Shown here one piece after another: positions 12,201 to 35,988 of a stretch of DNA of 64,000 nt. A model generated the notes under the pieces. That model worked only from the letters and a program-made list of their open reading frames with translations. It ran no database searches and had not been told where the DNA came from. How positions within the stretch are numbered: the first letter of the stretch is position 1; each line of letters starts with the position of its first letter. The DNA is from a virus (lineage: Duplodnaviria; Caudoviricetes). Both the position numbers and the translations under genes were made by a program. The DNA lies in the IMG/VR virus record IMGVR_UViG_2695420662_000003, positions 32,001 through 96,000 of that record; one strand, 5' to 3'.

Positions 12201-12635
12201 AAATTCATTTCTCCTTTATGTACCTCCAAGCACCGTAAGAGGTACTTGTTATCAACTCGATAACCACCCGTTCAATTATTTAATTTTTAAAAGTGCTTTT
12301 TAATTCATTCATATGTACTTTTATAAGTTTTACCTTACTCTTTTATAATATCATACTTTATCATACTTTTCAACTATTATTTTTCATTTGCTTTGACTTT
12401 TTTAAAGCATTCTTCGCTGCATATTCTTTGTTCTAAGTTTATTTCAAATAAGTCTGTCAACCTAGTACAATTATTACAAGGTTCTTTCAAGTTTGTTACT
12501 ATATATCTCATTTATACCTCCCAATATGTATTTAAGTTATTAACTAACTTACAATTTAATTATATATGATAAGTTCATACTAGTCAATACTTTTTATGAG
12601 ATTTTTATATTTTTAATCAACATGAAATTGACATT

Positions 12636-12824
12636 TTATTTACTTCTCAATTCTTTCAATCTATCTATTAATAAAATTAAATCATGCTTATGCAATTCTA
12701 TACTCCTATGAGTATAATGATTATTTTTATCTTCTTCCTCTATTGTGATTACTACAAAATCTTCATCCAAGTCTTCAGCATATAAAAATGTACCCATACC
12801 ATCTGATAACATAAACTTTTTCAT
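12636..12824 (-). CDS. Hypothetical phage protein
   Basis: 62-aa ORF with AAGGAG RBS. Confidence 0.65.
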   Translation of the reverse strand: MKKFMLSDGMGTFLYAEDLDEDFVVITIEEEDKNNHYTHRSIELHKHDLILLIDRLKELRSK

Positions 12825-12834
12825 ATAATTCTCC

Positions 12835-13176
12835 TTAATTTTCTACTAATAAGTCACATACTGGTTTATCTAATACAGCTTGTATTTCATCTTGTAAACT
12901 ATATGGCTTTAAATCACTTTTTCCAAGTCCATAAAGAGTATCTCTAAATTTTTGATCACTTATCATATCATATACAGTTAAAACTTCATCTATGAAATCC
13001 ATAGTTTCTTCTAATTCGGCTCTTTTACCTATCCAGTAACCTTTGCTCCACATTCCATGTTTACTTAATTTATCTTCATTTTCATATTCTTTTATTCTAG
13101 ATTCAATTCTCTTATGTCTACGATGTAATTCACTTTTTCTACTTCTTAATAAGTTTTCAACTTGATTTTCTAACAT
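12835..13176 (-). CDS. Hypothetical phage protein
   Basis: ORF track gives 12835..13257; GGGAG RBS supports ATG at 13176 (MLENQ). Confidence 0.65.
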   Translation of the reverse strand: MLENQVENLLRSRKSELHRRHKRIESRIKEYENEDKLSKHGMWSKGYWIGKRAELEETMDFIDEVLTVYDMISDQKFRDTLYGLGKSDLKPYSLQDEIQAVLDKPVCDLLVEN

Positions 13177-13461
13177 TATTAAATCTCCCTTTAAAACATT
13201 TATTTTATTAACTTTTATATTTCTACTAAATCCATAGTTTATGTTAATTACTTGCATATTTTGTCTATTTGTTCGTAAACTAATATCAATAGGTATATAA
13301 GTTTTATTAAATCAACTATCATTACAGCACCTCCTAATCATACTATGTAATATATCTACTTACATTGTATCTTAGTCCTGTAACATTCTTACTCGCTTGT
13401 ACTGTAATTAATCTATACCTAATATCCTAAACCCAGTTTTAAATAAAAGTTATTTTTCATC

Positions 13462-14562
13462 TTAAAAATTTCTATTATATACAAATATTACTATACAACA
13501 ACTTATTAATATTACACCCATAATTACTTTTGAAACTGTTCTAGTTTCTATTTGTATGTAATCAAAGTCTTTAAATTGCTTTCTGTCAAACTTCTTTTCT
13601 ATCATATCAGAAATATCATCCATTACTTTTTCAAAGTTATTTAAATTATCTTGAGACATAATATACTCTCTTACATCTGTTTTTAATATTTCTACATCTG
13701 TCCAACTGAAAGCATAACACCAGGTTGGTTTATTATTCTTATCTGTTCCATATGTAACTATAAAATCATTCTTTGCACCATTTTTCCAATGATCTTGCAA
13801 TGCATATCCATAATCCTCAGTTTTATCTCCAAAGTTAACAAGCATTAAATTAACCTGTTTATATGATTTAACTTTATCTTTATTATTAGGATTACTTGTA
13901 TCGTTAAGTCTAGTGTTAACTTCATCTAAATATTCATTAACTTTGTCTTTATTCTTGAAATTCCCTATCGCCCTATCTACTGTTAAATTATCATTCTCTT
14001 TAACTGGATAGTCTGGCATGTTCTCAAAATCATTTAAATCTATGTCTTTATGCTTAAATATAGAATATGAAGCCTTTAATTTATTTTCATATGTATGTAC
14101 TGAAGCAGTTGGTTTTCCTATAGGATAATACTTCTCCAATTCCTTATTTGAGTTAACAAAATCATCCGTAAATTCTTTTCCATCTAGCGTTTCATAAACT
14201 TCTTCCTTACCTTTATCAGTGGTTATTATATAGTTTTCTGCATCATGATGTTGCCAGTATCCAGGTATCACCCTTGTTTTAGTTACCGTTTTACCGTCCG
14301 AGGTTGTTTCTGTATATTCTTCAGTTCTAGGAGGTATCCATTCATCCCATTCCTCAATATGTTCAACCTCAGTTATCTTACCTGACCATATTTCGTAGTC
14401 TGTTGTTTGTATGCTATAATCTATACCTATTATCACACCATAAGATACGGCTATAACCAAAGCACATATACCAACTACTTTTATATCAATTTCTTTCTCA
14501 ATTAAATATACTATAGAACTAAATATACCTAGCGCTACAATCCCAAATATTACATAAGACAT
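13462..14562 (-). CDS. Membrane protein with large extracellular domain
   Basis: Two N-terminal and one C-terminal hydrophobic helices. Confidence 0.75.
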   Translation of the reverse strand: MSYVIFGIVALGIFSSIVYLIEKEIDIKVVGICALVIAVSYGVIIGIDYSIQTTDYEIWSGKITEVEHIEEWDEWIPPRTEEYTETTSDGKTVTKTRVIPGYWQHHDAENYIITTDKGKEEVYETLDGKEFTDDFVNSNKELEKYYPIGKPTASVHTYENKLKASYSIFKHKDIDLNDFENMPDYPVKENDNLTVDRAIGNFKNKDKVNEYLDEVNTRLNDTSNPNNKDKVKSYKQVNLMLVNFGDKTEDYGYALQDHWKNGAKNDFIVTYGTDKNNKPTWCYAFSWTDVEILKTDVREYIMSQDNLNNFEKVMDDISDMIEKKFDRKQFKDFDYIQIETRTVSKVIMGVILISCCIVIFVYNRNF

Positions 14563-14564
14563 AT

Positions 14565-15113
14565 TTATTCACCTCTTAGGTTTATTTCATCTGATATACC
14601 TGCCTCAAATGTTTTCTCTGTTGAATCCGATGTTACTATGAACTTATCTGCATTCATTGCTTTTCTGTTTGTTATTGCTGCCATTATGAATTTTTTCTTA
14701 ATATATGTATTATACTCCCTTATCTTATCCGATATCGTTGCTTGATTCTTGTCAAATGTTTTTCTATTTGCTGACAATTCTCTTTGAAGCGTTGTGTATA
14801 CCGTTGAATCTAAATTTGGATTTGACTCATGAATAACCTTAAATAATAAGTTTGTATCTTGATTTCTACCTGATATTAAATCTGTATATATTCTCTCGAA
14901 ATCATCTGCATACATATCAGTTACTTGCACCATTTCTTTTGCGCTTTTCACCATACTATCGTAATTTGATTTATTTGCTATGTATTGAGCCTGAATTGAC
15001 TCTTCTAATTCTACTGCTACATTTCTATGACTTAATAATGTAAATCCGCTTACTAATCCTGAGATCGTTAAAGTTCCTGCTAAAACCAATCCTATTAAAC
15101 ATCCTTTTTTCAT
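14565..15113 (-). CDS. LemA-like membrane-anchored helical protein
   Basis: N-terminal TM, coiled coil, ESNPNLD..Y..LQ..L...R pattern; coupled to membrane protein gene. Confidence 0.6.
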   Translation of the reverse strand: MKKGCLIGLVLAGTLTISGLVSGFTLLSHRNVAVELEESIQAQYIANKSNYDSMVKSAKEMVQVTDMYADDFERIYTDLISGRNQDTNLLFKVIHESNPNLDSTVYTTLQRELSANRKTFDKNQATISDKIREYNTYIKKKFIMAAITNRKAMNADKFIVTSDSTEKTFEAGISDEINLRGE

Positions 15114-15379
15114 AATATTCCTCCTATAAAATAATACTTTTATTTACTTTTAGTTATATTAAACATTATACTCATAAACTAATAATCTTTATCCTCTCTA
15201 TTTTCATATGAAATTCTCGCTATTTTAGATAAGCATTCCATGCATATAAAAATTTCACCATTGTAATCTTTATATACAGGTTTAAACCCTACGATAACTC
15301 TATCTATTTCTTCTTGATACTTCCCACACAAACTACATTTAAAAATATCATTTTTCATTTGATACCCCTTATAAAATTT

Positions 15380-15838
15380 TTATTTACTTACCCTAACACT
15401 TCCACCTGCATCTATATCACCAACTTGACCTCCTGCAACAACACAACTACCGCCACAGTCTATGTCTCCATTTACTTTACCTTCAACGGTGCAAGATCCT
15501 CCGCAATCTACTCCGCCTTCTACATCTCCATTAACTGTCATAGAACCTTCAGAATAAGCACCTTTGGATATATTGCCATTTATAGTAGCAGCACATTTAC
15601 AATCTAATTTATTTACGTCACCTTCTATAGTTATTGCAATCACTTCTTTATTTTCTAATTCTTTATCTTCGTACCTTTTACCATTTACATATAAAATTCC
15701 ATTATTTACTGATATATTTGCATTATTTGGTACTTTTATAGTTTTACCATTTATATTAACTTCTCCATTAGTCATAGATACTGAACTATTATTTCCCATT
15801 GATATGCAACTTCCAAAATTTACGTATTTACTAAACAT
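15380..15838 (-). CDS. Beta-helix (bactofilin/adhesin-like) repeat protein
   Basis: Repeats of V.G.V.G.(V/I)DCGGSC. Confidence 0.65.
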   Translation of the reverse strand: MFSKYVNFGSCISMGNNSSVSMTNGEVNINGKTIKVPNNANISVNNGILYVNGKRYEDKELENKEVIAITIEGDVNKLDCKCAATINGNISKGAYSEGSMTVNGDVEGGVDCGGSCTVEGKVNGDIDCGGSCVVAGGQVGDIDAGGSVRVSK

Positions 15839-16083
15839 AATTTAATCTCCTTTAATATTAATTTTTATATGTACTTACCACTTAAAAGTAAAATTTTATC
15901 CTATTCTAAATATTTATCTATATCTTTAAACATATCTTCATTCTTTGGAATTTCTTTAAACGTCGCTAAATATCTCTTATCTTCAAAATCCAATAATATT
16001 TTATTTCTATCGCAATAACTAGTACCACACCAAATATCTTGTAACATATTTAACATTCCACTTAACTTATGTACCATATTTAT

Positions 16084-16347
16084 CTATACCTCCATGTACT
16101 CTTCTATTGATATGAATGCTTGTTCAAATCCGTTATTATTTACTTCAACTTTTAAACACTCTACTTCAAAAGTTCTTGATACACAATAATCTTCATCTCC
16201 AAAGAATACATATGTATCATATTTATTCCCTTCTTTTAAATTAGTTAAGGTTCCAGTACTGTGAATATTTTTTATATTATATATTTCATTAAAGACTCTG
16301 TCCATTTCCCACATATTTTTGTTGTTAATCCAAGTTTTATATTTCAT
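16084..16347 (-). CDS. Hypothetical phage protein
   Basis: 87-aa ORF with RBS. Confidence 0.6.
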   Translation of the reverse strand: MKYKTWINNKNMWEMDRVFNEIYNIKNIHSTGTLTNLKEGNKYDTYVFFGDEDYCVSRTFEVECLKVEVNNNGFEQAFISIEEYMEV

Positions 16348-16599
16348 TTTGATTTCTCCTTTTATATGATAAAATTAAGATTTTATCTTGTTTCATCTAT
16401 AAGTTTATTTATTATTCTTTTATATGTTTCATTCTGCTGTGATAATATTTGTTTTACTTCATCCTTATCCCATAATGCCATTCTATTTATTAACTTCATA
16501 GTTTCTTTATTCAATTCATCTAACTTCTTATTTATAACGTGTTTTTCTAAATCGTTAATCATAAAAATACCTCCTTTTTAAAATTTTATTTAGTTTTTA

Positions 16600-16947
16600 C
16601 TATTCCATCAAAAATTCTTTATAGTTGGGAAGTTTTATATATCCTTCTTTTAAATTCTCATCTAGTAATCCACTCATTATTTCAAAAATTTTAATGTAAT
16701 TCAATGCATCTCTAATATTTCTCTTATATCCTTGAATTATTCCGACATTATAGTCTACTATGCAAAATATACTTCTTTTATTGCATTTAATCTCATATAT
16801 GCGATATATACCTTTGTCTGTAGCTATACCTTTTATAAACTTGCTTTTCACTTTATGCTTTTCAAGCTTTAAATCTTCTAATCTTATATTATACTCCGTA
16901 ACTCTTTGGAATTTCTTGTTTAAAAGCTCTCTATCTTTCTTATCCAT
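16600..16947 (-). CDS. Hypothetical phage protein
   Basis: RBS AGGAG supports ATG at 16947 (MDKKD) within ORF 16600..17010. Confidence 0.6.
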   Translation of the reverse strand: MDKKDRELLNKKFQRVTEYNIRLEDLKLEKHKVKSKFIKGIATDKGIYRIYEIKCNKRSIFCIVDYNVGIIQGYKRNIRDALNYIKIFEIMSGLLDENLKEGYIKLPNYKEFLME

Positions 16948-17134
16948 TTTATACTCTCCTTTTAAAATTTTCATTTTATTTATATTATTTTCTTGTTCTT
17001 GTTTTTCCACATTTAGTGCATTTAAATCTTAAATATCCATTTCCTCGTTCAAGTAATACCCATCTATGAGAACAAAATAAACCCATACTATTCTCTCCTT
17101 CTATTTTCTTTTAAAATCTGTATTCTATCTGCTT

Positions 17135-17491
17135 TTAAAAATCACTTTTTACTATCCTCTCTATTTCATCCCAACTCGGAATATGATCTAATTCCTCATA
17201 TATTTTCGTAACTGGAGTTCCATACTTCCACCAATAAACTATCATTGCATAACTTTTCGGATGCTCCATTACTGAAAAGCTAATCCTCTTATTATCTATA
17301 TTTCTTATCCTAAAATCCCAAGTTGACAAATAAACATCTTCAATTTTATCATCTATTAAATAATGTCCTCTTCTAAATCCATGTCGCTCCATATATGGCA
17401 ATTTATACTTCTTATCTTGTTCTAATTGATGTTTATATCTAAAGTTTTCTATATAGTTGTCATATATGTGCATATCTTTTGCATAAATCAT
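17135..17491 (-). CDS. Hypothetical phage protein
   Basis: 118-aa ORF with GAGG RBS. Confidence 0.65.
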   Translation of the reverse strand: MIYAKDMHIYDNYIENFRYKHQLEQDKKYKLPYMERHGFRRGHYLIDDKIEDVYLSTWDFRIRNIDNKRISFSVMEHPKSYAMIVYWWKYGTPVTKIYEELDHIPSWDEIERIVKSDF

Positions 17492-18395
17492 TCTTTACCT
17501 CTTAAACTTTCAATATGATTAATTATAGATTCTACCAATCCTATTTCTGTCTGTTTTACTATCGCATCCTCTACATCATCTATGTAGGTTTCTTCTATTT
17601 CGCTTTTTAAACTGTATAAATAATCAAGTACTTCGTTTATCATAATTCCCTCCAGATCCCAATAAAAGAACGATTTTATTCAATTTTTATTTTATATGTA
17701 CTTTACTACCAATTATTAACCCCCATCAATGCCACTATAATCCATGCTATTTGTGTAAATATTGACAATCCACCCATGCATGTTTTTATTATAGTTAAAG
17801 CACCCAATATATACATAATTATTTTCAATATTTTTAGTATATCTAATTTCATATGTACTTATTCTCCTTTATCAAATTCATATTTCATACCTGTATTTCC
17901 ACAACGCTTGTTCTGACAAATACATAAACTCTGATCTTCTCTAACTTTATCTTCAAATACTTTTACATTATTTGATTTGCATTTTCTACATCTAACCATT
18001 ACTTAACCCACCTAAATGTTGTTCTACCACACTTCTTACAAACATACAGACTATTCCCATAATGTAATTCTAAATCTTCTTCTGGGCATCCAAATAAATG
18101 AATCATCCAATAAACAAAACTCTTTAATTCTCTCATATGTACTCTACCTTTCAAATCTCTTTAATCTTTGAGTTTTAGACTTCCTATACTCAATAAAAAT
18201 CTCCTGTTCTTTTCTTGCTTTTGCAATCCTATCTTTCTTTTGTTTCTCCATAAAAGCGTTTACAAATTCATCTTTAGAAACTACTATATTCATTTTTTAT
18301 CCCCTTTTTCATATGTACTTAAGATTTAATTCATCTTATACTTATATTGTATGATAAGTTCATACCATTGTCAATCATTATTTTTAAAATTTTTA

Positions 18396-18614
18396 TTAAA
18401 TTGTTGATGCCTTTATTTTTAGTTCACACTCTTTACATTCTCTATTTAGATTCTCTAATATTTTATCGATCATGTCAGTAGTGCCCCTAAATAGTTTATG
18501 TGTTGGTTTTTCTAAATCATTCGCCACAAACACAGATATAAGCCTACATTCCTCATATTCTCTAATTTGTCCTTTAATCTGTTTTAACTTGATTTCTAAT
18601 TCTTTTATATTCAT
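18396..18614 (-). CDS. Hypothetical coiled-coil protein
   Basis: 72-aa ORF with GGGAG RBS, downstream of structured leader. Confidence 0.6.
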   Translation of the reverse strand: MNIKELEIKLKQIKGQIREYEECRLISVFVANDLEKPTHKLFRGTTDMIDKILENLNRECKECELKIKASTI

Positions 18615-18640
18615 TTTTAATCTCCCTCATATGTACTAAT

Positions 18641-18770
18641 TTAGAGTTCAGAAAACTCTATACTACCACCCATTTACATGAGTAGCAGCAACAACCTTCT
18701 GAACTTGTTGATAACCCGTAGTTATTCATTCAAGAGGATTGTAAGATTTTGTATGAGTATATCTTACATT
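18641..18770 (-). ncRNA. Candidate structured RNA or 5' leader
   Basis: Five consecutive hairpins incl. cUACGg and GUAA tetraloops, plus GUUCAGAA/UUCUGAAC long-range complementarity; promoter-like TTGATA upstream. Confidence 0.5.
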
Positions 18771-18822
18771 TATATTATATGATTTTACTTTCTAAATATC
18801 AACTAATTTTTAAATATTTTGC

Positions 18823-19635
18823 TTATTTTTTCTTTGGATATGGATTGCCGCAGCACATATCTCCTTCTGGGCATTTACCAAATTGACATGATGCACCTAG
18901 CATTCTACTTAATAATGGAGATATCTCTTCTATTAAATCAACCATTCCCCATGCTAAATCATGAATTTCGCCCTGCGCCCTACGACAACATCTATGTTTG
19001 CAGAAGTTTATAAGAGTTCTAAGGTTCATAGTGCATATTATTTTAGTCTCACAGGCATTAGGTAATACTGATCTAGCATCCTCTATTGCCATTTTAATAA
19101 ATGATCTATATTTATCTTTGTATTTATCTTTCATAACATCTTCTAAAAGTTCTATAGGTGTATCTGGCGAATATATCTCTTTTTCTTCTACTAAATAATC
19201 ATATATAAAAAATTCTAATAATTCTCTCGATATACGTACGTAACTCTCGAAAGCATTATTCATCGCCTTCTCAAATTTTTGTTTAATATATTTTACTCCA
19301 CCTATTCTTTTAGGTACTACATACTCAAATGATTTATCTAAATTTACATAACGCTGCGATTGTTGCGAATATGATGCTATTCTATGTCTTACCAATTGAT
19401 GTGTAAGCGACCTAGACACTCCTTCTATTGCAAATGTAAATGAAACATGTTCTAATGGGCTTTCATGCCCCATTGATACTAACATATTTACAAATTTTTC
19501 TATTGCCTCTGGAGTCTGTTTTTCCATTAAATCCTTTATACTAGATGGCGAATAACATAACTTTCCCGCAACTGAGATTATTAATTCTGGATTCATTGTG
19601 TGACTTAATAATTTTATATTTAATTTAGTTTCCAT
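18823..19635 (-). CDS. thyX: FAD-dependent thymidylate synthase
   Basis: GHESPLEH, RHRIASYSQQSQRY signature, ARSVLPNA, AQGEI. Confidence 0.97.
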   Translation of the reverse strand: METKLNIKLLSHTMNPELIISVAGKLCYSPSSIKDLMEKQTPEAIEKFVNMLVSMGHESPLEHVSFTFAIEGVSRSLTHQLVRHRIASYSQQSQRYVNLDKSFEYVVPKRIGGVKYIKQKFEKAMNNAFESYVRISRELLEFFIYDYLVEEKEIYSPDTPIELLEDVMKDKYKDKYRSFIKMAIEDARSVLPNACETKIICTMNLRTLINFCKHRCCRRAQGEIHDLAWGMVDLIEEISPLLSRMLGASCQFGKCPEGDMCCGNPYPKKK

Positions 19636-19654
19636 ATGTACTTATTCCCCTTTA

Positions 19655-20566
19655 TTATATATTATTTCTTTCTGCTATTTCTATTGTTTGTTCTATTAAA
19701 CTTAATACAGTCATTTGTCCAATTCCTCCTGGAACTGGCGTAATGGAACAATTCTTCTCAACCAATCTATCATAATCTGATTTAGATACATCCCCACACA
19801 TCTTACCATTTTCATCAAAGTTAATAGATATATCTATTATAGTTGTTCCAGGTTTAAAATCCTTTGATTTAAAGAAATTAGGTTTACCTATTGCAGTAAC
19901 TACAATATCCGAATTCCATACCTTATTCATTAAATCGTTTGTTTTACTATGTGCTATTGTAGGCGTAGCATCATTTTGTAACATAAGCATACTCAGTGGT
20001 TTACCTACGATATTACTTCTGTTTATGATTAATACATCCTTACCTTTAACGTCTATATTATTCTCTTTTAACAGTGTCATCACACCTTTTGGCGTACATG
20101 CTATATTACCATCTTGCCCAAGTATTAATTTCCCCATATTTTCACTTGTAAAGCCATCTACATCTTTTTTAGGATCTATTAAAGATGTTAAATAATCCTC
20201 GTCTAAGTGTTTAGGTAGTGGTAATTGCAGCAATATAGCAGTAACCCATGCATTATCATTTAATACTTTTATTTTATGTGCTATTTCCGATTGAGATATA
20301 TCTTCTCTTAGATGTATAATTTCTGATTCAATTCCAACTTCTTTACATTTATTTATCTTATTTGCAACATATTTACCTGATGCAAAATCATTTCCAACTC
20401 TAAGTATTACTAATTTCGGTTTTTTATTTAACTTACTAACTCTAACTTTTAACTCTTCTATTTTATCTTTTACTAATTCTTTCGCCTCTAATATCTTCCC
20501 TCTATTCATCACTGTCTCCTTATTTATATGTGCTGCTATATAATCTGTTGTTTGTATTTTCTTCAT
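19655..20566 (-). CDS. folD: Methylenetetrahydrofolate dehydrogenase/cyclohydrolase
   Basis: LLQLPLP, KDVDG, CTPKG, RSNIVGKP, ITPVPGGIG. Confidence 0.96.
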   Translation of the reverse strand: MKKIQTTDYIAAHINKETVMNRGKILEAKELVKDKIEELKVRVSKLNKKPKLVILRVGNDFASGKYVANKINKCKEVGIESEIIHLREDISQSEIAHKIKVLNDNAWVTAILLQLPLPKHLDEDYLTSLIDPKKDVDGFTSENMGKLILGQDGNIACTPKGVMTLLKENNIDVKGKDVLIINRSNIVGKPLSMLMLQNDATPTIAHSKTNDLMNKVWNSDIVVTAIGKPNFFKSKDFKPGTTIIDISINFDENGKMCGDVSKSDYDRLVEKNCSITPVPGGIGQMTVLSLIEQTIEIAERNNI

Positions 20567-20588
20567 ATATAATCCTTACCGTTAAAAC

Positions 20589-23500
20589 CTATATTTTATT
20601 TACTTTTAAATCATCCTTTATTAAAAACTCCCTTATTTCATTGCAAGTTCCATAATAATCTTTCCCTGCTATCATTGCTCCATGAAGTGTATCATTTGGT
20701 CTAAAAGGTTCTTTTATTCTTGTTTTTAACTCATCTATTAATTCTATTAAATCCCAATTTTGATAATCATATCCTTCTACGTATTGACGTCTCATATTTT
20801 AACCCCTCCATATGTACATAAAATTTATTTTTTATCATATTTATCTTCAAATTCTATAACCGAAAGTAAACAAGATATTTTACCTTTGGCACTATGTAAA
20901 CTTTTAATGGAATTTTCCCCTGAACACCATACGTCATTTAAATCACTCATTATCGACTGTAATATACATTTAACTGAATTTTCATTTACTCTCATTTTTT
21001 CTCCTGTTTTCACCAATAAAAAGATTATTTTATTTATTGTTATGATTTATTTATTTTGTCTTAATATAGTTCTATATTTTAAACATTTTTTAAGAAGTCT
21101 ATCAAAATTTTTACCTTTTCCTATACAAGAACACCCTTCTTGTTGTTTTTTATCTATTACAAACGATAACTCCTCCTCTGCTAATAAAACACTTATCATT
21201 TTTTGACCATTTATTTCTTTTATTCTATCCATAATATTACCTCTGCTTTTTTATTTTTTCTTCTTCATATTTAAACTGTTCTAAATACTCTTTGCTTAAA
21301 GGCTTCTTCATAATTTAACTCCTTTCGATAAAAATTATATTTTATTACCTGGTAAAACTTTTAAAATCTTTACATGACTCAGAAAAATAATCCATATGAG
21401 AATTACATTTATTACACCATTCGGCCTGGTAATTATCACAAGTTCCACAGATAGCACTTTCATCATAAACCTTAGATTCTTTTATTTCTAAGATATATAT
21501 TTCTCCTATTATATTGTCATTTATCCACTCATATAACTCTTCTTCTGAATTAAGTTCAACTTCAAATTCTTCTGAACCTCCCATAAACTCATATTTCCTA
21601 TATTTTAATGTAAATAGTGTCTTATAATGCTTAAAATACTTTAATTCATCTTTTTTAAATCTCATATTTACCTCCTTTCTAAATAAATACTATCTTTTAT
21701 GATTGTTCTAAATATTGATTATAAATCCTATTCTCACATTCTTGACATAGTCCTTGATGTAAAAGATAGTAGCGATAATCTAATTCTTCTCCGCAAATAT
21801 CACAATATTTCATTTCTTTCATTTTTATATCCTCCTATTGAATGAATTCCAATTTTCATCTAATTCATACTCTGGACAAAAATTCTCATTTTCTTTTATT
21901 ATATCATCGGCTCTTTGGGGTAAAGTAAAACCATGACATATTATTAATCCTGTAGATGTCATATATCTTCCATTTTTACAATTATAACATTTTTGATTAT
22001 ACATAACTCCTCCTATTAGTAAATGAAAGTTCTATTTTATTTAAAATACTTTTCATAATCCTTTGTTGTTGCGTCTATATTATTTATATCTAAATCATCA
22101 TCCCATTCAAATTCTACAGTCTCACTATTACCAACGTGATATATGCAATCTGTACGATCTGCTAAATAGTTTATAAAACTATCGACTGTCTCAAATTGAT
22201 TATTATAATCCACTATATACAACTCTATTTTATGTAATTTTTCCATATGTACCTCCGCTTAAATATATTACCTTTTATACATCCATCTTTTCTATGCTAA
22301 TTATTCTATCTATATTTAACACTATCTCGCTATTGTCTTGATCTCCAGTTAACACAATGAATTTATTTCCTATATATATTTTTTTTAATAAATTCATCAA
22401 CAGTTTTATAATTTCCTATATGAACTGCTGTTACACCATCCGTAAGCGCTATTTTTAATTTCATGTTACTTCCTCCTTGAATTATTTTTTAATTTTATAC
22501 TTATACTTTAAATTTTCCAATATATAATCAAATATTACTTCTTCCATGTATCTTCTTCTATCGTCTTCACTCATATCTTCAAATTCATTATCATCTATTT
22601 TCATTTTAAATTTTTTGAATTCTCCAACTGAATACCCCATACAATTTATAGTGAATTCTATATTCATATTAGTCCTCCTTATAAAATCATCATTTTATCC
22701 TTATATATTCTCTGTATTATCGCATTTGTTGCACATAACGTAATATCCATTTGTAGTAAGATATTCATCTTCTCCGTCCCAACCCCAATCAAAGTCTTCT
22801 TTAACACTTACATCTCTACTTCCACAATTTAAACATTCTATTTTGAAATTCTCCAATACAATTACCTCCAACTTGAAAATACTATTTTATCTAAGTTTCT
22901 TACCACACATTGGGCAAAAATTTATCATCTTACCATACAAACTGTCATCTTCCCCACCTCTTTTATTTTCCTCCAAGTAACTACAAGTGTTTATTTTTAT
23001 CATGTGATTATTTTTTATTCCGTATAACAGTGGTTTTCTTTCTGTCCATCTCCCATTACAATATTTGCAACCGTCATAGTCTAGATTTTTTAAATATATT
23101 ATAAGATCTTTCATATACTTAATTCTGTCTCCAAAGTTTTCATTAAATTTCTTTATATTAACACTTTTACTCCTTTTTATATTTAATCTCCCTAATTCAT
23201 CTTCCAATAAGGCTATCATAAAGTTTACCTGTTCCCTATTCATATTTCACCCCTTATTTATTCCCTATAAGTATCATATATTTCTATAATCTTAGTTATA
23301 TCTTTATCCAGTTCATAATTTATATGATCTAACTCACAAGTTATATTTTCTATTACCAAACGACCCACCGCATCACTTAATCTGTCTAACTCTTCAACAT
23401 TTCTAATTTCTATTATCGACAATACATGTTCCTCATCATAATAGTCTTTTACGTGTATATATAACATATTGAAATCCGATAACTCATTTTTATATTCTCT

Positions 23501-23765
23501 TATATCTTTGTTATAAGTTCTCTTTAATAAATACCTCATGTTATCCTCCTAATTAGAATATTAGATGCCATAATGCTCTTAATGTTCTTTTCCATTCGCC
23601 GTTTTTATTTAACTCAAATCCATCTATAAAAACTTTTCCATTTATTGTAGTGATAGAAACCCCTTTCATGCCCTTAACCCAAGGATATTCTATACCGTTT
23701 ATTGCAGTAATTCTTCTATTACTATTTGTAACCACTGAAACTTCATTACTCTTTTGATCGTTCAT
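20589..23765 (-). other. Run of very small co-oriented hypothetical genes (20589..20795, 20825..21016, 21047..21232, 21345..21665, 22037..22246, 22482..22667, 22887..23243, 23258..23539, 23553..23765 and shorter ones)
   Basis: ORF track plus RBSs; many Cys-rich zinc-finger-like peptides; separated by the 18-bp sites. Confidence 0.7.
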
Positions 23766-23786
23766 AAAATCCTCCTAATAAAAATG

Positions 23787-24305
23787 TTATTTTATTGACC
23801 ATCTAGATTTTGGTTTTAATGGTGGTAAATTCAAATGTCTCCACACTCTATTCGTAACTAACTGGGAAACAAATGATGGGTTAACATTATATTCCTCAGC
23901 TATATCTTTATATCTCATTTTTCCTTCTTTGCATTTATTATAAATTTCCATAACAATATCTTCATCAAGTTTACTCATATAACAACTTTCTCCGGATCTT
24001 TTCTTTAGTCTCTTTGCTTCATGTTGTTGATTTTCTTTCTTAGTTACCCATTCTAAATTATCAACTCTATTATTAGTTTTATCTCCGTCTATATGATTTA
24101 CCTCTGGTTTATTCTCTGGATTAGGTATAAATACTGTGGCTACTATCCTATGAAGCCCTCTAATTATCCCAAGATTTCCACCATTTATCATTGTAGTAAC
24201 ATACCCACTTTTTGATGGTTTTGTACTTAAATATTCTCCTTTTTTATTTATAACCTTTCCATAATTAGAAACTTTATAGCCATTAATTTCTCTCCATTCT
24301 TCCAA
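23787..24305 (-). CDS. NUMOD4-HNH homing endonuclease
   Basis: EEWR..YKVSNYG, LHRIVA..F, VNHIDGDKTNNRVDNLEW. Confidence 0.92.
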   Translation of the reverse strand: MEEWREINGYKVSNYGKVINKKGEYLSTKPSKSGYVTTMINGGNLGIIRGLHRIVATVFIPNPENKPEVNHIDGDKTNNRVDNLEWVTKKENQQHEAKRLKKRSGESCYMSKLDEDIVMEIYNKCKEGKMRYKDIAEEYNVNPSFVSQLVTNRVWRHLNLPPLKPKSRWSIK

Positions 24306-24350
24306 TTTTATTTACCTCCTTAAATTCGTACTTAAAATTCTAATTTTATT

Positions 24351-24629
24351 CTAATATATTTCAAATTCTTCGCCACAATCTAAGCATCTACCATATTTTT
24401 GACCACCATGATAGTATTTTTCATAGTTTAAACACTCACATCCAACTTCCTCTACACTCTCTTTAATAAAACTACCCTTTCCACCTATTACCTTTGCACA
24501 AAAAGTTTTTTCTATATTATCTGATATTTCATCTTCCACTTGATTTAAAAAACTGCTCCAACTATCAACTATAACATCTTCGTTTACTAATATTTTTGTA
24601 GTTATCTCCAATCCAACTATCTTTTTCAT
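24351..24629 (-). CDS. Hypothetical protein with C-terminal Cys motif
   Basis: 92-aa ORF with GGAGG RBS. Confidence 0.6.
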   Translation of the reverse strand: MKKIVGLEITTKILVNEDVIVDSWSSFLNQVEDEISDNIEKTFCAKVIGGKGSFIKESVEEVGCECLNYEKYYHGGQKYGRCLDCGEEFEIY

Positions 24630-24792
24630 GCTATTTATCCTCCAATATATCTTTTATTAAATTATCACAATCTTTTATGAATTTTTCTTTTGCTTTATGA
24701 GTATATACATCCACATAATTATCAAGTCTTAGCCCATCTCTTTTTATTTTCTCTATTCTATCTATAAGTTCTCGTTTATACATATTTTCCAC

Positions 24793-25005
24793 CTACCAAC
24801 TATAATCATATTTTATTTTTGCTGCTTTAAAAACATATATTATTTTATTTTCCTCTTTTAAAATTTGCATACATTTACAATGTGTTTTATTATTTAATAT
24901 TATTTCATCGCCAGGTTCATATTCGTAGTTCTTTCTCGTTCTCATATCCTCTACTTCTCCAGGTGTTATTATTCTTATATATTTTTCCATATTATTTCTC
25001 TCCAT
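24793..25005 (-). CDS. Hypothetical phage protein
   Basis: 70-aa ORF. Confidence 0.55.
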   Translation of the reverse strand: MERNNMEKYIRIITPGEVEDMRTRKNYEYEPGDEIILNNKTHCKCMQILKEENKIIYVFKAAKIKYDYSW

Positions 25006-25224
25006 ACACTTTTTACATTTTTATTTTATTTTATTTTTAAATTTCTCTCTTCCTGGTAAATATTTATTAAAACCTTTCACCTCATCAAATTCACAATTTA
25101 ATACTGCAAATCCAAGCCTAACTACTTCTCCATTGTAGAATACACACTTGCTGCCACTCATAGTTATTAAAGCGTGTGGTATTTGTGATTCATAATCTGT
25201 ACCCCAATAAAATTTATCTTTTAT

Positions 25225-25686
25225 CTACATTTCTCTCAACAATTTATTTAATTCTTTTACTACCGCTCTATGTTTTTTGTTTGCATCTCTTATTGCTGCT
25301 TTTGCTTTTATAACATCTTGTTTCTTAAGGCATAAATCTAAACCATAATCCAAATTAAAAATATCTTCATCTAAACATACCGATCTAACCTTTTTACCTT
25401 TTTCAATTAATTCTATCGTTTTTCCATTTGTTCTATATGCAAACGTCCTGTTCTCATAATTAGGATCATTTAAGTGTCTTTTCCATTCGCCCCAAACCAA
25501 AGGTTTCTCTTCTACTTTTTCAAAGTATTTTTCAAACTCATCATATGACATTATTCCAGTTCCATAATTTGATGATATTGTAATAGTACCTAATTCATTC
25601 ACTCCTGTTATTTCAAATATATCTCCTATTTTATCAAAACCTCCTATAGCTTTTATTAATTTTATCTTATCTCCCTTTATTAACAT
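25225..25686 (-). CDS. Hypothetical phage protein
   Basis: 153-aa ORF overlapping the stop of the PcfJ-like gene. Confidence 0.7.
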   Translation of the reverse strand: MLIKGDKIKLIKAIGGFDKIGDIFEITGVNELGTITISSNYGTGIMSYDEFEKYFEKVEEKPLVWGEWKRHLNDPNYENRTFAYRTNGKTIELIEKGKKVRSVCLDEDIFNLDYGLDLCLKKQDVIKAKAAIRDANKKHRAVVKELNKLLREM

Positions 25687-26831
25687 ACCTTCTTCATCCT
25701 TTCTAATCTATTATTATATTTATCTATTGCTTCTTGTTCTTCATCTGTTAAACTTCTATTAAATTTACCTAACGCCTGAACTACCTTTCCACCTTTAACT
25801 TCAACCGTAACCAGACTTTTCTCTTTACTATCTTTTCTTCTTAAAAATAATATGTGGCACTCCCCGTCTATAACTTTTTGTATATACGATGCCACGCAGT
25901 TATTTTGTTGTACTGCTTCATCTTTTATTTCATTTGTATTTTCTGGGTACATTAATACATATTTTTTGTATGTATATTCCATAGTTTTATCTATTCTTCT
26001 TTTAAAAGCATCTTCTTTAAATTTAGTTCTTAACCTTATGTAATTCCTAGATGCTATTCTATGTGTAGTTAAAAAGTTCTTAGGATATTTTTCATATTTA
26101 TCACTGATGGAACTCATCATATTAACATAGTCATGTACTTCTACTATCAATCTTTTAAACCCTTCGATGGCCTCATAAGTCATCAAATTATCTAAATATG
26201 TAAGTAATGCTTGTGGTTTATAATTATGGTTATCAACCAATCTGAAGAAGCATCTTTTATAGTTGTCTTCCCACCTTTTATCCTGATCATATGTAAGTAT
26301 ATCTAAAATATCTCTGCGATTTAATGTATTAAATTCTATCTCTAGTAATCTAAACATATTTGGTCTGGTCATAAACGCTTTTATCATTCTATTTTCTAGT
26401 TTTATATTCTGTTCTCTGCAAAATTTTATTAAGCCTTTAGGGATATCTTTGAACTCAGAATGTATAGGGTAATCTACCTTTGTTAATCCAGATGAAAATA
26501 ATTGTTCATATTTAGAATATTCATTTATTCTTTTTAAGAAAGTTCCTATATTTTTAACCTTTTCTACTCTTCTGTTTCCATATCCATATCTTTGGTCTGT
26601 GCTTCTATTGACACAGCCATCTACAAATTCTAAAAAAAATCTATATTTTATATCCTGAAATGAATTTATTACATCTAATAGATTATATCCTCTAAGTTGT
26701 GTACATACATCTTTTACTGGCCTTCCGAGTTTTCCGATACATTCATGTGTTGCTAAATTGTATTTTACATTTTTACCATCTTCAAATTCAAATACTAAGA
26801 ATTGTTTTTCTTTATATGCTTTCATATTCAA
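25680..26831 (-). CDS. PcfJ-like domain protein
   Basis: C-terminal EA.QQNNCVASY..V..G.C.ILFLR...SLVTVEV....QALG..NR. Confidence 0.85.
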   Translation of the reverse strand: MNMKAYKEKQFLVFEFEDGKNVKYNLATHECIGKLGRPVKDVCTQLRGYNLLDVINSFQDIKYRFFLEFVDGCVNRSTDQRYGYGNRRVEKVKNIGTFLKRINEYSKYEQLFSSGLTKVDYPIHSEFKDIPKGLIKFCREQNIKLENRMIKAFMTRPNMFRLLEIEFNTLNRRDILDILTYDQDKRWEDNYKRCFFRLVDNHNYKPQALLTYLDNLMTYEAIEGFKRLIVEVHDYVNMMSSISDKYEKYPKNFLTTHRIASRNYIRLRTKFKEDAFKRRIDKTMEYTYKKYVLMYPENTNEIKDEAVQQNNCVASYIQKVIDGECHILFLRRKDSKEKSLVTVEVKGGKVVQALGKFNRSLTDEEQEAIDKYNNRLERMKKVC

Positions 26832-26860
26832 TTTTAATCTCTCCCATATGTACTTATTTA

Positions 26861-28676
26861 TTATATTATTGCATCTAGCAGTTGCTCTGAGTTCTCTTTA
26901 AAACAATTTATACCATCTGCTAACAACATTAATTCTCTACTTGCCTCAAGATCTAACTTATTTATTTTCTCAATATCTTCATCAACTAAATTTAGTTTAC
27001 TCAGCTCTATGATACCTTTTGTTAGGTCGTTACAAGCATTATATATCTTGTTATATATTGGTAATATTTCGCTCATTCTAGTTTCTTCTAATCTCATTAT
27101 TCAATTCTCCTTCATATGTACTTGATAACTAACTTGTTATCTTAATTTAATTATATTATATGTATATTTCAATGTCAATACTTTTATATGAACTTATCAT
27201 ATTTTTTATTTTTCTAAATCTTTTATTTTAGAACATATCAATTCTGCATTATGAATATCCTCTAGATATGTTTCAAAATATTCTACTATCTCACTAACAT
27301 CTTTTTCTTCTTGTAATACAACTGTCATATTTATATTAAAATTCTTCATTTTCCAAATTATCTCCTTTTTATTTTATTAAAGTAACAATGAAAATCTTAT
27401 TTTATTGCTTTCTTTTATATTTTCCTTTTTAATTCTTTATATGTGCATTTGGAGTAATCAAACACTTATATCCCTCCCTAGTTCTCTCAATCCTTCCCAG
27501 ACTATTGAATTATATTCTTCAAAATCCTCTTTTCTCTGTTGTTCTAATTCATCCATTAAATCTTTTTCACACTTTAAACACATTCCGTCAATATTAATTA
27601 ACTCCTTAATTTCTCCACAAAATATACATTTACACTTCATAACTATACCTTTCTAATTCAAAGCCTTTAAATCCTTAAAATATTCATTTGTAATATTATT
27701 TGCTAATAAATCCAAAATCTTAACAAAATCATATTCTTTAAGTTTTCGCATAGCTAAATCTTTCGGGGCAAGCCAATATTCCGAACAATAACCATTGAAT
27801 TTCAATCTTAATCTTATGTCAATTGTTCCAAAATCACTATGATCAATCATTTCTAAATGTTTGTATTTATTACTAAATTCTCTTAAGGCACTTATATTAT
27901 CTAATAAAAACATTTAAGCCTCCTTTTAATATTTAATTATATCACTAACCCACATTTTACCTTCTACACTATGTGTATCCCAATTAAAATCTCCAATACT
28001 CCATTTACACACAAATTCTGCTATGTTTATATCTGTTATTCTATCTTTCAATATGTATCTTTTAAAATCATCCTCATATGTACATTCTATCCATTTATTG
28101 CTGCTATTAAGCAAGTCTATCGTTTGTTCTATATCCATAGACTTATCATAACCTTCTATACAGTATAACAAATCTTTTATTTTATCTTCTACTACTGTTA
28201 TTTCTTTATTAATAAACTCTTTCATAAGTGACATCATTCTTCTATCACCTCGATTTCAGCATCAGTTACACCAAGTTCATCAAGATACCGAAGACCTTGA
28301 TCTAAGCAGTGTAACTGATTTATTCCATTTACAATTATATAATTGTTTTTATCTTCTAATATGTACACAATCTTACATTTCATAATGTAAATCGCCCCTT
28401 TTATTTAAATCTAGCGTTTATCCTTTTTAATTGTTCTTCTACTGTAATTCCTGTATCTTCTTCTTTTTTCATATATCTTAAGAATTCTAATACTTTATCC
28501 AAATTCACTGTTGCTAAAACTTTTTCACTACTTCCTGACTTTGATTTTACAAGTTTTCCATTTATTTTAGATGGTAAAGAAATTAACATGGCTTTATTAG
28601 TATCGTCCTCTGATTTTATTGCATAACGTTTGCCATTGTCTAATTCATAGAACTTTATTGTTTTTTCTGTTTTCAT
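26861..28676 (-). other. Cluster of small hypothetical genes (26861..27097, 27458..27640, 27653..27913, 27926..28237, 28401..28676)
   Basis: ORF track and RBSs. Confidence 0.6.
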
Positions 28677-29046
28677 TTTTTACACTCCCTGTATATGTAA
28701 GTTTATTATAACTAAATAATATCATACTTTCTCATATATATCAAGTGTTTATCAAAATATTTTTTATCTTTTGTATATTTAATTTTAATCATATGTACTA
28801 ATAATTTATTTTCTAATTTCAATTACTTTATCATTCTCTAACTTAACCAATATTCTTCTTCCTGCTAATGTTATTGCAGTCCATACATTTTTATACTGGC
28901 GCTCTAACAATCTACACATTCCCATATTTTCAATCTCGCTTGTTAAGATCCTCATATCACTCATATTCAATTCTCCCTAACATAAATTTTAAAGGTGTGA
29001 ATATAAGTTTATGCCGTAGATCCACACCATAATTACCATAAGAATA

Positions 29047-29697
29047 CTATTTTCGTTTATCTATCTTCTTAATTAATCTATCTATTCTCTTCTGACAATC
29101 GTCATTCCACCCTTCTTCTAATGCCTTTTGAGTTAATTCTAATGCTTTATCATATTCTTTTCTTTTTTCATATATTATCGCTAATTGCTTATATCCTGTA
29201 TGCGAAGGTAGTTCTTTAAAATATTTACATTTTTCAAATGCTATTTTACTTTGATTAGATATATTTATTTGTTTCTCACAGTATTCTATCGCTCTATCTA
29301 GTGCATCTGTATAATTGTCTCTATTTTTATATAAAACTCTTATACAATTCAAATAAAAGAAATGCACGTCTAATATATCTTTTGTTTCTTTTATATTATC
29401 TTCTCCAAGTTGTATAATCTTTAATGCTATATTATATCTATCTACATCTTTAAACCAACCCACTAATCCACCTATAAATGCTAGTTTTGATGCGGATGTA
29501 TAACTTATACTCCCCTTATCAATTATTATATCTTCTCCAGATGATGTAATTGGAGTATATGTTTCTCTAATAATTCTTCTTTCATTATCATTTAATTCCT
29601 TGAGCCACCAATCCTCAAGATTATAATACTTAATCCATCCTCCAACTTTTATTTTCTCATTCCCTTGGTAAATACCCTTTGAAAATATCTTACTCAC
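29047..29697 (-). CDS. TPR-like helical repeat protein
   Basis: AIEYCEKQI, GYKQLAIIYEK..EYDKAL helical repeats. Confidence 0.7.
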   Translation of the reverse strand: MSKIFSKGIYQGNEKIKVGGWIKYYNLEDWWLKELNDNERRIIRETYTPITSSGEDIIIDKGSISYTSASKLAFIGGLVGWFKDVDRYNIALKIIQLGEDNIKETKDILDVHFFYLNCIRVLYKNRDNYTDALDRAIEYCEKQINISNQSKIAFEKCKYFKELPSHTGYKQLAIIYEKRKEYDKALELTQKALEEGWNDDCQKRIDRLIKKIDKRK

Positions 29698-29722
29698 CCC
29701 TTAAAACTATTCTTTTATTTGA

Positions 29723-29953
29723 TTAATTTAAAGTGGTCATTTCTTTTAATTTATTTTCAACTTTTATAACCTTAACTTTTAATTTATTTATTTCATTAGC
29801 ATTGCTCTCACTTAATATCTCTAATGTTTCAAATCCGTCATTCATTTTGTATTCCATTTTATTTAATCTTTTATTTATATCTTTTACTTCTGATTGAACT
29901 TCCTTTAAATCCTTTTGCATATCTAAAAGTATTTCTAATATTTTATTGTCCAT
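29723..29953 (-). CDS. Small coiled-coil protein
   Basis: Heptad pattern, AGGAGG RBS. Confidence 0.65.
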   Translation of the reverse strand: MDNKILEILLDMQKDLKEVQSEVKDINKRLNKMEYKMNDGFETLEILSESNANEINKLKVKVIKVENKLKEMTTLN

Positions 29954-30036
29954 ATTCTAACCTCCTAAAGTTATTATCTAACTATTATAACATAACTTAA
30001 TTGCTGTTGGTGTTAAAATCGTGATTTCATGTACCA

Positions 30037-30252
30037 TTATACCTTTTCTACTATTACATCAACTCTACATCCATGTTTATTTGCAGCAATATGATTAAAC
30101 AGTACTACATGATTAATCTTTATAACTTTATATTCCTTGTTTAAAACCATTATACACTCTTCAACTCTTGGTATAAAATCTGATTCATATTGAGTCAGAA
30201 AACTATCTCCTTTTGAATTACGTAAAAAAACTTTAATCACTTTCAATCTCAC
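30037..30252 (-). CDS. Hypothetical phage protein
   Basis: 71-aa ORF with upstream promoter and operator. Confidence 0.55.
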   Translation of the reverse strand: MRLKVIKVFLRNSKGDSFLTQYESDFIPRVEECIMVLNKEYKVIKINHVVLFNHIAANKHGCRVDVIVEKV

Positions 30253-30527
30253 CTCTATTTTTAATTTATTGCCTCTTTACACTAATTATTATATGATAAG
30301 TTCATATATTTGTAAACTTATTTTTGAAGTTTTTTATATAAAGTTTTCGACAAAATATAAATAAAATCACACTTTCATGTATTAAAATAAACCTGGACTA
30401 TCAATTCTTACAAATTAATGCAAGAATAATGAAGTAGATAATCCAGGTTTATTTATTATGTTATTCACAACTTGAGAGATTCTCATTATAATTTTAATAT
30501 ATTTCTATATTGTATGTCAATTTATAT

Positions 30528-31292: not shown

Positions 31293-31297
31293 AGTCT

Positions 31298-31762: not shown

Positions 31763-32017
31763 TTTTGTTTGAAATATGTATTCGAGATTTTTTATTTTCG
31801 GTCACAAAATCTTGAGTGAATAAATCTTATGGTTTGATTATACAAAATTGATTTTTAAGTGTCAATAGTTTTTATTTTGGTTTTATTTTTAAAAAAGGAC
31901 AGAACAGGACAGTATATCTTTTCTTGTCTTTCCTGTATTTAAAAGAAAAGTATTTAAAAGCATTTAAAAGCATTTAGGACATATTGTGATTAGGTGATTG
32001 CAATGGATTCAGCGATT

Positions 32018-35902: not shown

Positions 35903-35988
35903 AATTCATATCTCCTTTTGAATTAAATTTTTATTAATTGTTTATACTGTAATATATGTATTTTATATATGAACTGTTCATATATTTT

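Follow-up and report, generated by a model that had tools for sequence, protein, structure and literature searches.

In integrons, the attC sites that separate gene cassettes measure 57-141 bp, fold as single strands with extrahelical bases, and work together with an adjacent IntI integrase, an attI site and a cassette promoter (Pc). On Acinetobacter plasmids, the pdif sites used by XerC/XerD carry arms of 11 bp that correspond to the XerC and XerD binding sequences in dif, and the target of Tn916 has the form of a T-tract followed by an A-tract. We describe here a short inverted repeat, referred to as the dyad, which punctuates an array of small co-directional genes (12622-30378, minus strand) in the phage of virus record IMGVR_UViG_2695420662_000003. 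The record is 130,836 bp long, its ends being 97-bp terminal repeats, and the window analyzed is the whole 64,000-nt stretch at its bases 32001-96000, to which the coordinates of this phage refer unless indicated. The dyad has two A/T arms lying 6 bases apart around a centre that changes from site to site, and gene replacement boundaries between related phages fall at it in excess. The dyads may be fixed recombination joints for gene-module exchange between phages, a reading on which our confidence is evenly balanced.

With pdif and dif modules the dyad shares two inverted arms, a 6-bp centre and flanking gene modules that occur in varied contexts on related replicons, but its arms are conserved over 5-7 bp only, unlike those of dif. 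A sequence-only reading of the window had likened the site to the substrates of Tn916-type tyrosine integrases; the fixed 6-base gap and the short inverted arms agree with such a geometry, whereas the T-tract-then-A-tract order at a 6-base gap is not enriched (4 sites vs 30 for the dyad order). The PeSL elements of T4-type phages combine a strong sigma-70-like promoter with a stem-loop acting as terminator, and their exchange is attributed to homologous recombination between copies, mini-circles being shown (PMC2839356, PMC4122927). Like a PeSL, the dyad is a short conserved motif repeated in the plastic regions of a large phage, where it separates small genes that are not essential and where insertions, deletions and replacements between relatives stop at the motif. 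It differs from PeSLs in having neither promoter boxes nor a stable stem, strong promoters being located instead in larger gaps. A last comparison concerns Bacillus phage SPbeta, whose master repressor MrpR/YopR/SroF has a tyrosine-recombinase fold and whose SPBRE element is, in the portions available of its published description, a 15-bp motif in a 24-26 bp box, read base by base by a monomer at about 10 promoters (PMC10516654; bioRxiv 10.1101/2025.11.27.690993). SPBRE is likewise an intergenic repeated element, in a phage which carries the dyad, and its reader has a recombinase fold. Identity of the two was rejected on that partly available description and on the finding that the dyad lies upstream of only 2 (aimR, yorE) of the 8 SPBRE target genes located in the part of SPbeta compared, in a genome with 34 dyads. 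No paper describing the dyad was found in the literature covered, which lay largely outside subscription journals.

The pattern of the sequence-only reading, WTRAAA-N6-TTTYAT, gives 46 strand matches in the window, corresponding to 28 distinct sites, against 3.0 ± 2.3 (maximum 13) in dinucleotide shuffles, of which 0 out of 100 reached 46. The site family and its enrichment over shuffled background are thus confirmed, but the array contains 22 sites of this pattern instead of the about 26 that had been announced. Of the 19 matches to a strict 16-base core, TAAAA-N6-TTTTA, found over the window, 16 fall within 12622-30378. When only intergenic DNA of the whole 130,836-bp genome was considered, 24 sites were found vs 0.5 (mononucleotide shuffles) to 1.25 (context-keeping swaps). 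The constant 6-bp spacing was borne out by a scan of TAAAA-Nk-TTTTA, which gave 30 sites at k=6, the other gap lengths between 0 and 14 yielding 1-8 each. The peak at k=6 was also present in phiCD211 (24) and LIBA2945 (15), two phages introduced below, and control patterns (reversed; T-then-A) displayed no peak at any gap. Allowing one mismatch in the strict core brought the count close to noise (62 vs 45 expected), and this search was dropped as a way to lengthen the site list.

In gene sense the motif reads ATAAAA(T)-N-TTTTA(T/A). Among 29 genome-wide sites of the wider form WTAAAA-N6-TTTTAW, 28 have ATAAAA as left arm; on the right, 20 have TTTTAT and 9 TTTTAA. Base counts over these sites confine conservation to positions 1-7 and 12-18, with unconserved flanks. 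The bases which copies share amount to only 10-13 of 16-18 bp; as had been noticed from the sequence alone, the centre is different at nearly every site. The junction position also holds. Dyads, on the gene (minus) strand, overlap a stop codon or lie 0-5 nt past it, and most of them stand 3-26 nt 5' of a start codon with a GGAGG-type ribosome-binding site (RBS), which begins 0-10 nt, often 0-2 nt, after the dyad. Relative to called coding regions, 22 of the 29 sites are wholly outside, 3 overlap a gene end by 1-8 bases and 4 are wholly within a gene. The sequence-only reading had not found the dyad in the packaging and replication genes; the late genes (44-64 kb) indeed have none, but one site (481) occurs among the replication genes of the window (1-12.6 kb), and upstream of the window the genome holds 8 further sites, some among nucleotide-metabolism and replication genes. 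At two junctions, 15358-15380 and 16562-16600, both arms are found 0-1 bases apart (ATAAAAATTTTAT, ATAAAATTTTAA), as though the centre were missing.

The portal protein of the phage is closest to those of the 130-kb Clostridioides difficile phages phiCD211, phiCDIF1296T and LIBA2945 (30-32% identity), which are presented as big plasmid-type siphophages in the available text of PMC5786514. Five Clostridioides phages were compared in all ordered pairs, with pairwise coverage of 13-54%. A junction conserved in the partner on one side and not on the other was scored as a transition, and each junction-by-partner combination was counted as a cell. Between phiCD211 and LIBA2945, 6 of 49 block ends were at a dyad, where a uniform null gives 0.36 and a gene-terminus null 1.5 (P 0.015). 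Over all co-directional junctions, transitions represented 83 of 125 cells with a dyad vs 432 of 1073 without (odds ratio 2.9). The excess was also seen at gaps of 18-70 nt located at most 3 kb from a dyad, both by cells (63/96 vs 129/272; odds ratio 2.1, P 0.003) and by junctions (35/40 vs 69/110; odds ratio 4.2, P 0.005). It concerns both sides of the dyad, the downstream gene being conserved in 50 of the 83 transition cells and the upstream gene in 33. The conserved block contained the entire dyad in 51 of these cells, part of it in 10 and none of it in 22, and both kinds of transition were displayed by eight junctions. The dyad therefore does not belong to one gene as a fixed 5' or 3' component.

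Centres are kept between these phages to an extent which chance does not produce. Over the ten genome pairs, 59 identical 16-base dyads were common to both members, vs 8.9 ± 2.9 (maximum 18) with shuffled centres, and of these shared dyads 11 had homologous immediate neighbours on both sides, 27 on a single side and 21 on none. The centres TGTCAG, TAAATA, TGATAC and TCTTAA are collinear in phiCD211, ES-S-0107-01 and pCD1602_4, with intervening DNA that varies in content and length. In alignments at shared centres, sequence identity begins or ends 0-2 nt from the dyad. The TGTCAG centre was found with two upstream and three downstream contexts, in four combinations, and one downstream gene stands behind a GTATTA dyad in ES-S-0107-01 and behind a TAAATA dyad in pCD1602_4. 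In LIBA2945, a 1.5-kb insertion separates the right arm of a dyad from its centre. In phiCD211, two tandem dyads (86140-86181), 6 nt apart, occupy the upstream edge of a 3.4-kb DNA polymerase segment; at the corresponding place in LIBA2945 the segment is missing and a single dyad is present.

Three centres of our phage, GTATTA (15126), TCTTAA (16369) and TTCAAC (43002), are centres of the Clostridioides family, in the same order and with unrelated flanks. Exact sharing with phiCD211 exceeds expectation (3 vs 0.69, P 0.02), and so does the collinear chain score (6.0 against 2.84 ± 0.83, P 0.004; P 0.010 with ES-S-0107-01). We regard this sharing between our phage and the Clostridioides family as a lead from sequence comparison. 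The sites of the window and their surroundings, all on the minus strand, are given below.

12622-12639: dyad variant, right arm TTTCAT; the stop of the upstream gene is inside, a sigma-70-like promoter follows, and a relative's homology begins at its edge
13191-13208: strict dyad, gene-sense core TAAATG; start codon 14 nt on
13443-13460: dyad variant, left arm ATGAAA; just past the stop of gene 13462-14562
15126-15143: strict dyad, core GTATTA, also in phiCD211, LIBA2945 and ES-S-0107-01; abuts AGGAGG
15882-15899: strict dyad, core TTTTAC; a relative's homology block stops 3 nt inside
16369-16386: strict dyad, core TCTTAA, also in phiCD211, ES-S-0107-01 and pCD1602_4 with unrelated flanks
16962-16979: strict dyad 5' of an RBS; 27-nt island matching a relative's contig, possibly by chance
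17135-17152: dyad with strict 16-base core 17136-17151; across the stop of gene 17135-17491
17662-17679: strict dyad, core TCGTTC; start codon 18 nt on
20582-20599: strict dyad preceding the FolD-like gene; a block of homology with a relative stops 3 nt inside
20818-20835: strict dyad; a relative's contig diverges within the core (20828)
21016-21033: strict dyad; start codon 20 nt on
21328-21345: strict dyad; start codon 16 nt on
22023-22040: dyad variant (TTTCAT); stop codon on one side, RBS on the other
22681-22698: strict dyad; abuts AAGGAGG
22873-22890: dyad variant (TTTCAA); stop codon on one side, RBS on the other
23778-23795: strict dyad; stop codon of an HNH gene in the core
24332-24349: strict dyad upstream of the HNH gene
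25207-25224: strict dyad; just past the stop of gene 25225-25686
27388-27405: dyad variant (TTTCAT); start codon 39 nt on
29701-29718: strict dyad immediately 5' of the TPR gene, which is missing from a relative that joins 29702 to 29031
30013-30030: doubtful member, dyad variant with left arm ATGAAA in a promoter-rich gap; a relative's homology stops at its edge
30361-30378: doubtful member, dyad variant with left arm ATGAAA; one sigma-70-like promoter on each side
39401-39418: strict dyad outside the array interval; RBS in the core, start codon 3 nt on
42784-42801: dyad variant adjoining the start of the TnpB-like gene 41533-42783
43002-43019: strict dyad, core TTCAAC, also in phiCD211, ES-S-0107-01 and pCD1602_4

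The HNH gene (23787-24305) is bracketed by the sites at 23778 and 24332, in agreement with the sequence-only reading. For the TPR gene, which had been described in the same way, the site at 29701 stands, but the one proposed at 29038 fits neither the pattern nor the 16-base core with one mismatch.

In the lineage of the phage itself, the comparison was made with contig pieces of mosaic relatives from four DNA runs. The 28.5-kb contig of one relative aligns in pieces 12000-12640, 15379-15896, 17849-18873, 19633-20596, 21997-22256 and 26825-27127. Three ends of these pieces (12640, 15896 and 20596) are at the upstream edge of a dyad or 3 nt within it, and contigs of other relatives diverge at 20828, within a dyad centre, and at 30013. 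One relative (run X3) joins 29702 to 29031 via 8 other letters, the TPR gene (29047-29697) being gone. Further ends were found at junctions devoid of dyad (15379, 17849/17860, 19633, 21997, 22256, 26825 twice, and 30529) and within genes (18873, 23563 and 26988). Two islands of 21-27 nt, 16956-16982 and 17656-17676, were not counted, as possible chance matches between dyads (about three expected by our own estimate). These alignments are suggestive of breaks at dyads, in numbers that do not lend themselves to counting.

The dyad was then counted in other phages. Values are dyads vs a reversed control, with WTAAAA-N6-TTTTAW or the 16-base core as indicated; part denotes a partial stretch of the genome.

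phiCD211: 25 vs 2, WTAAAA-N6-TTTTAW; 24 with the 16-base core (part)
LIBA2945: 18 vs 0, WTAAAA-N6-TTTTAW; 15 with the 16-base core (part)
ES-S-0107-01: 23, 16-base core (part)
pCD1602_4: 21, 16-base core (part)
ES-S-0173-01: 12, 16-base core (part)
Bacillus phage SPbeta: 34 vs 2, 16-base core
Lactococcus phage 949: 2 vs 1, WTAAAA-N6-TTTTAW
Brevibacillus phage Sundance: 0 vs 1, WTAAAA-N6-TTTTAW
Thomasclavelia phage TR-TP1: 1 vs 2, WTAAAA-N6-TTTTAW
phiC2: 0 vs 0, WTAAAA-N6-TTTTAW
phiCD27: 0 vs 0, WTAAAA-N6-TTTTAW
phiCD38-2: 1 vs 1, WTAAAA-N6-TTTTAW
phiCD6356: 3 vs 0, WTAAAA-N6-TTTTAW

Since it is present in some large phages and not in other large, AT-rich or C. difficile phages, the dyad is a property of particular phage lineages, three of them here, and not of AT-rich phages or of the phages of one host. 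Its placement in phiCD211 and SPbeta is the same as here, past or over a stop codon and mostly 12-25 nt 5' of the next start. Dyads are confined to the early small-gene arm and nearly absent from late operons. SPbeta and our phage have in common the arms, the 6-base gap, the junction position and tens of copies per genome; our phage differs as a phiCD211-like clostridial phage, often with TTTTAA as right arm and with ATAAAA or TTAAAA as left arm. A megablast of window 12-31 kb against a phage collection gave no match, a scan of genome contigs revealed no close relative, and viral-contig scans seeded with the PcfJ-like protein, the ThyX-like protein and a 152-amino-acid protein gave no close relative either, only distant loci or none. 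A metagenome scan with the FolD-like protein recovered 80 loci sharing nucleotide-metabolism genes only; 8 of the 10 nearest are without dyad, L023 has one and L029 three to four.

The fixed geometry of one helical turn, the invariant arms, the kept site-specific centres and the two-sided excess of breakpoints together point to a site in DNA, recognized by a two-subunit protein, whose centre matters. Short inverted arms at a constant distance of 6 bases suit a DNA-binding protein of two subunits, for example a tyrosine recombinase. In the reading of the dyads as recombination joints, they would be DNA-level sites with invariant A/T arms (TAAAA/TTTTA; often ATAAAAT, TTTTAT or TTTTAA) set 6 bases apart around a site-specific centre, both arms being presumably bound by a protein. 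Related phages meeting in one cell would swap the genes on either side of a joint, with crossing-over in or at the dyad and in register where the centres are equal; the joint would persist while the adjoining genes change, and a gene could appear behind a joint with another centre. Exchange could be site-specific, a recombinase acting at sites with equal centres as in heterospecific lox cassette exchange or dif modules, or could rely on short homology within a conserved linker, the kind of recombination that has been proposed for PeSLs.

Several observations weigh against this reading. The dyad occupies the entire gap from stop codon to RBS, so that the selected replacement of whole genes would also break at dyad edges, and it is for this reason that our confidence does not rise above an even balance. 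About 47% of the matched cells without dyad are breakpoints as well, hence the dyad is neither necessary nor unique; the coincidence of breakpoints with the sites in related phages, which the sequence-only reading needed, is found as an excess (odds ratio 2.1 when matched) and also elsewhere. Significance was reached with five genomes only, the junction-level test on the single pair being not significant (6/10 vs 22/53, P 0.32; 5/9 vs 16/53, P 0.25), and the five-genome counts are non-independent, as junctions are orthologous and several partners were counted. ES-S-0107-01 reverses the trend under the tightest control (11/21 vs 29/49). Own-lineage comparisons relied on pieces instead of full contigs, and gene calls came from a simple home-made caller by which some small genes were missed or mis-started. 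Centre sharing between our phage and phiCD211 shows no excess when one mismatch is allowed (12 vs 11.4), and three of the five relatives give no signal of sharing with our phage. Different centres would block classical tyrosine recombination between different sites, and no recombinase tracks the dyad among the phages compared. What was proposed as cassette shuffling at the sites is thus retained for a junction-specific family with gene replacement boundaries in excess; it is not retained for a dyad that is required or for a recombinase tied to it. A broader version, a natural cassette-exchange system common to large temperate Firmicutes phages such as SPbeta, the phiCD211 group and our phage, in which one conserved recombinase-like protein would bind the arms and the 6-base centre would act as the address of a slot for slot-for-slot swaps in register between co-resident phages, is put forward very tentatively and appears doubtful.

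The main rival, unlikely in our estimation, is that the dyad is a gene-expression element, an intercistronic signal such as a translational operator 5' of the RBS, a processing site or an insulator, with breakpoints at dyads because expression units move whole. Such a signal accounts for the position at the stop codon and, mostly, 12-22 nt 5' of the start in our phage and in phiCD211, for the restriction to the early small-gene arm, and for the asymmetry of the arms in gene sense. It does not account for the symmetric behaviour of the dyad, which moves with the upstream gene as well as with the downstream one, or for identical centres that survive the replacement of both neighbours. A strict 6-base gap with unconserved centres is also odd for a family of RNA hairpins. 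The predicted hairpins are weak (-1.3 to -4.7 kcal/mol, z-scores -2.1 to +0.3; 8 of 8 folded), and the arms never covary: six junction sites pair TTTCAT or TTTCAA with ATAAAA, an A-C mismatch in RNA. These variants would break an RNA stem, yet represent only one change in one DNA half-site, which argues for a DNA rather than an RNA reading. Some dyads have no adjoining RBS and stand upstream of a promoter or after a terminator (12622 here; aimR and yorE in SPbeta). Two specific forms were rejected. A sequence scan found 0 terminator-like sites in 12000-31900, which together with the weak folds speaks against a terminator; a promoter was rejected since base counts around 29 dyad sites gave no -35 or TG signals and the RBS often begins 0-2 nt after the dyad. 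The strong sigma-70-like promoters of the array region, about eight (31865, 30520, 30316, 28744, 27178, 18802, 18374 and 12587), are found in larger gaps and not at dyads. Rfam families gave no match in 10-44 kb at E up to 0.1.

It is quite unlikely, in our view, that the dyads are sites for a DNA-binding protein with another task (roadblock, regulator of the plasmid state, nucleoid or partition protein, bend), mosaic boundaries being a by-product of conserved islands. Some plasmids and plasmid prophages do have numerous scattered operators, such as those for P1 C1 and RK2 KorB, and the fixed one-turn spacing of short inverted half-sites recalls the operators of dimeric repressors. The phage also carries a plasmid-type gene set:

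32228-33325, plus strand: Rep3 initiator
30528-31292: ParB-like protein (weak match)
36662-37597 of the window and 129338-130276 of the genome: two Xer-like tyrosine recombinases

Since its nearest known relatives are plasmid prophages, the 131-kb phiCD211-like phage is probably a plasmid prophage itself. A better candidate for a repressor operator is however provided by another palindrome, TATGA-N5-TCATA, with 11 copies vs 0.36 expected, as it is located inside early promoters, at least three of which have it in the spacer that separates -35 from -10:

1012-1026, 12565-12579, 18350-18364, 27187-27201, 30292-30306, 35968-35982: TATGA-N5-TCATA, candidate operator
39536-39550, 40419-40433, 43762-43776, 43865-43879, 53930-53944: TATGA-N5-TCATA, candidate operator

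Dyads are off recognisable promoters, as judged by eye over the 40 nt upstream and from the base counts. The SPbeta master repressor, in the parts available of its description, uses a different and longer box at about 10 promoters (PMC10516654; bioRxiv 10.1101/2025.11.27.690993). In addition, drift would be expected in a spacer that is not read, but phages with unrelated flanks have kept their centres in common.

We consider it improbable that the array is a self-contained integron-like system, in which the recombinase at 36662-37597 would excise and insert single-gene cassettes at dyads within the phage. As in integrons, small genes of one orientation are strung together with imperfect palindromes between them, which are conserved at their ends and variable at the centre; the geometry is compatible with tyrosine recombinases, and the HNH gene is placed between two dyads. 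The protein has Phage_integrase and SAM-like domains, aligns to XerA and XerC through the Arg, His-x-x-Arg and Tyr motifs, and looks catalytically intact from its sequence. Dyads differ from attC sites by their 16-18 bp and by weak folds which produce no attC-type folded site; the arms, conserved over just 5-7 bp, enclose differing centres. No attI-like site or cassette promoter was seen, the array having about eight promoters of its own, and the nearest tyrosine recombinase, 6 kb off the array with other genes intervening, is XerA/XerC-like (the IntI-specific extra domain was not searched for). Upstream of the window, dyads also stand amid genes for nucleotide metabolism and replication, whose frequent excision would do harm. 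The integron label given to the array from the sequence alone therefore fails. Nor is the 36662-37597 recombinase supported as its possible driver, as no homologue was found at E<1e-4 in phiCD211 or LIBA2945, which both carry dyads, and the protein has no similarity to SPbeta YopR or YopP. Two other proteins were rejected as dyad-linked readers. The conserved XerD-like recombinase shares 71% identity with its LIBA2945 counterpart and a weak similarity with SPbeta YopP (E 4e-13), and has a 34.6% identical homologue in Sundance, which is devoid of dyads; PcfJ-like proteins occur widely among unrelated large phages. A scan of 10 large proteins revealed no YonO-like RNA polymerase.

That the dyad is no unit at all, independent A-rich post-stop and T-rich pre-RBS composition meeting by chance, is a negligible prospect: the few junctions with arms 0-1 bases apart and the near-noise one-mismatch count would suit it, but the count peaks at a gap of 6 only, intergenic shuffles fall far short of the 24 observed sites, the reversed control gave 0-2 in every phage tested, and AT-rich relatives are without the dyad.

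The minus strand carries all genes from window position 1 to about 31.7 kb, and between 12.6 and 31.7 kb each inter-dyad unit holds one to several of these co-directional genes. Genes for replication and metabolism comprise DNA polymerase, primase, exonuclease, topoisomerase II and anaerobic-type nucleotide metabolism, with ThyX-like and FolD-like proteins; the phage also encodes several HNH endonucleases, the PcfJ-like, Rep3, ParB-like and TnpB-like proteins, a sigma-like factor, portal and tail proteins. The PcfJ-like protein is 61-62% identical to its counterparts in the 130-kb C. difficile phages, and a handful of phage proteins match SPbeta at 24-41% identity. The TnpB-like gene (41533-42783) encodes OrfB_IS605 and Cas12f-like TNB domains without an adjoining transposase gene, and is flanked by the dyad variant at its start (42784) and by a one-mismatch match at 41489, just beyond its stop. 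A sigma-like protein of 489 amino acids (55458-56927) matches phrog_5767 (E 1e-56), has 29% identity to a LIBA2945 protein annotated as LuxR-family, and is a candidate late-gene regulator. The 208-nt gap between the ThyX-like gene and the next gene (18615-18822) contains a promoter and a G+C-richer, structured-looking stretch with no Rfam match. Another repeat, GTACATAT, is present in 55 copies between 213 and 62922 of the window vs 3.95 expected. Its orientation tracks the gene strand (39 minus copies up to 43.4 kb, 15 plus copies from 44 kb, and a single exception at 62144), and it is frequently located just 5' of a start codon or across it.

Whether phage mosaics break at gene boundaries through recombination at special linkers or through random illegitimate events sorted by selection is an old question. 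A defined site of 16-18 bp marks many such boundaries. Both SPbeta, a model phage, and the large plasmid prophages of C. difficile carry it, and the question becomes testable in a tractable system. The window extends the dyad from SPbeta-like Bacillus phages to clostridial phages. If the dyads were active joints, they would explain the free movement of accessory genes among the phages that carry them, and could possibly provide a small natural tool for modular DNA exchange.

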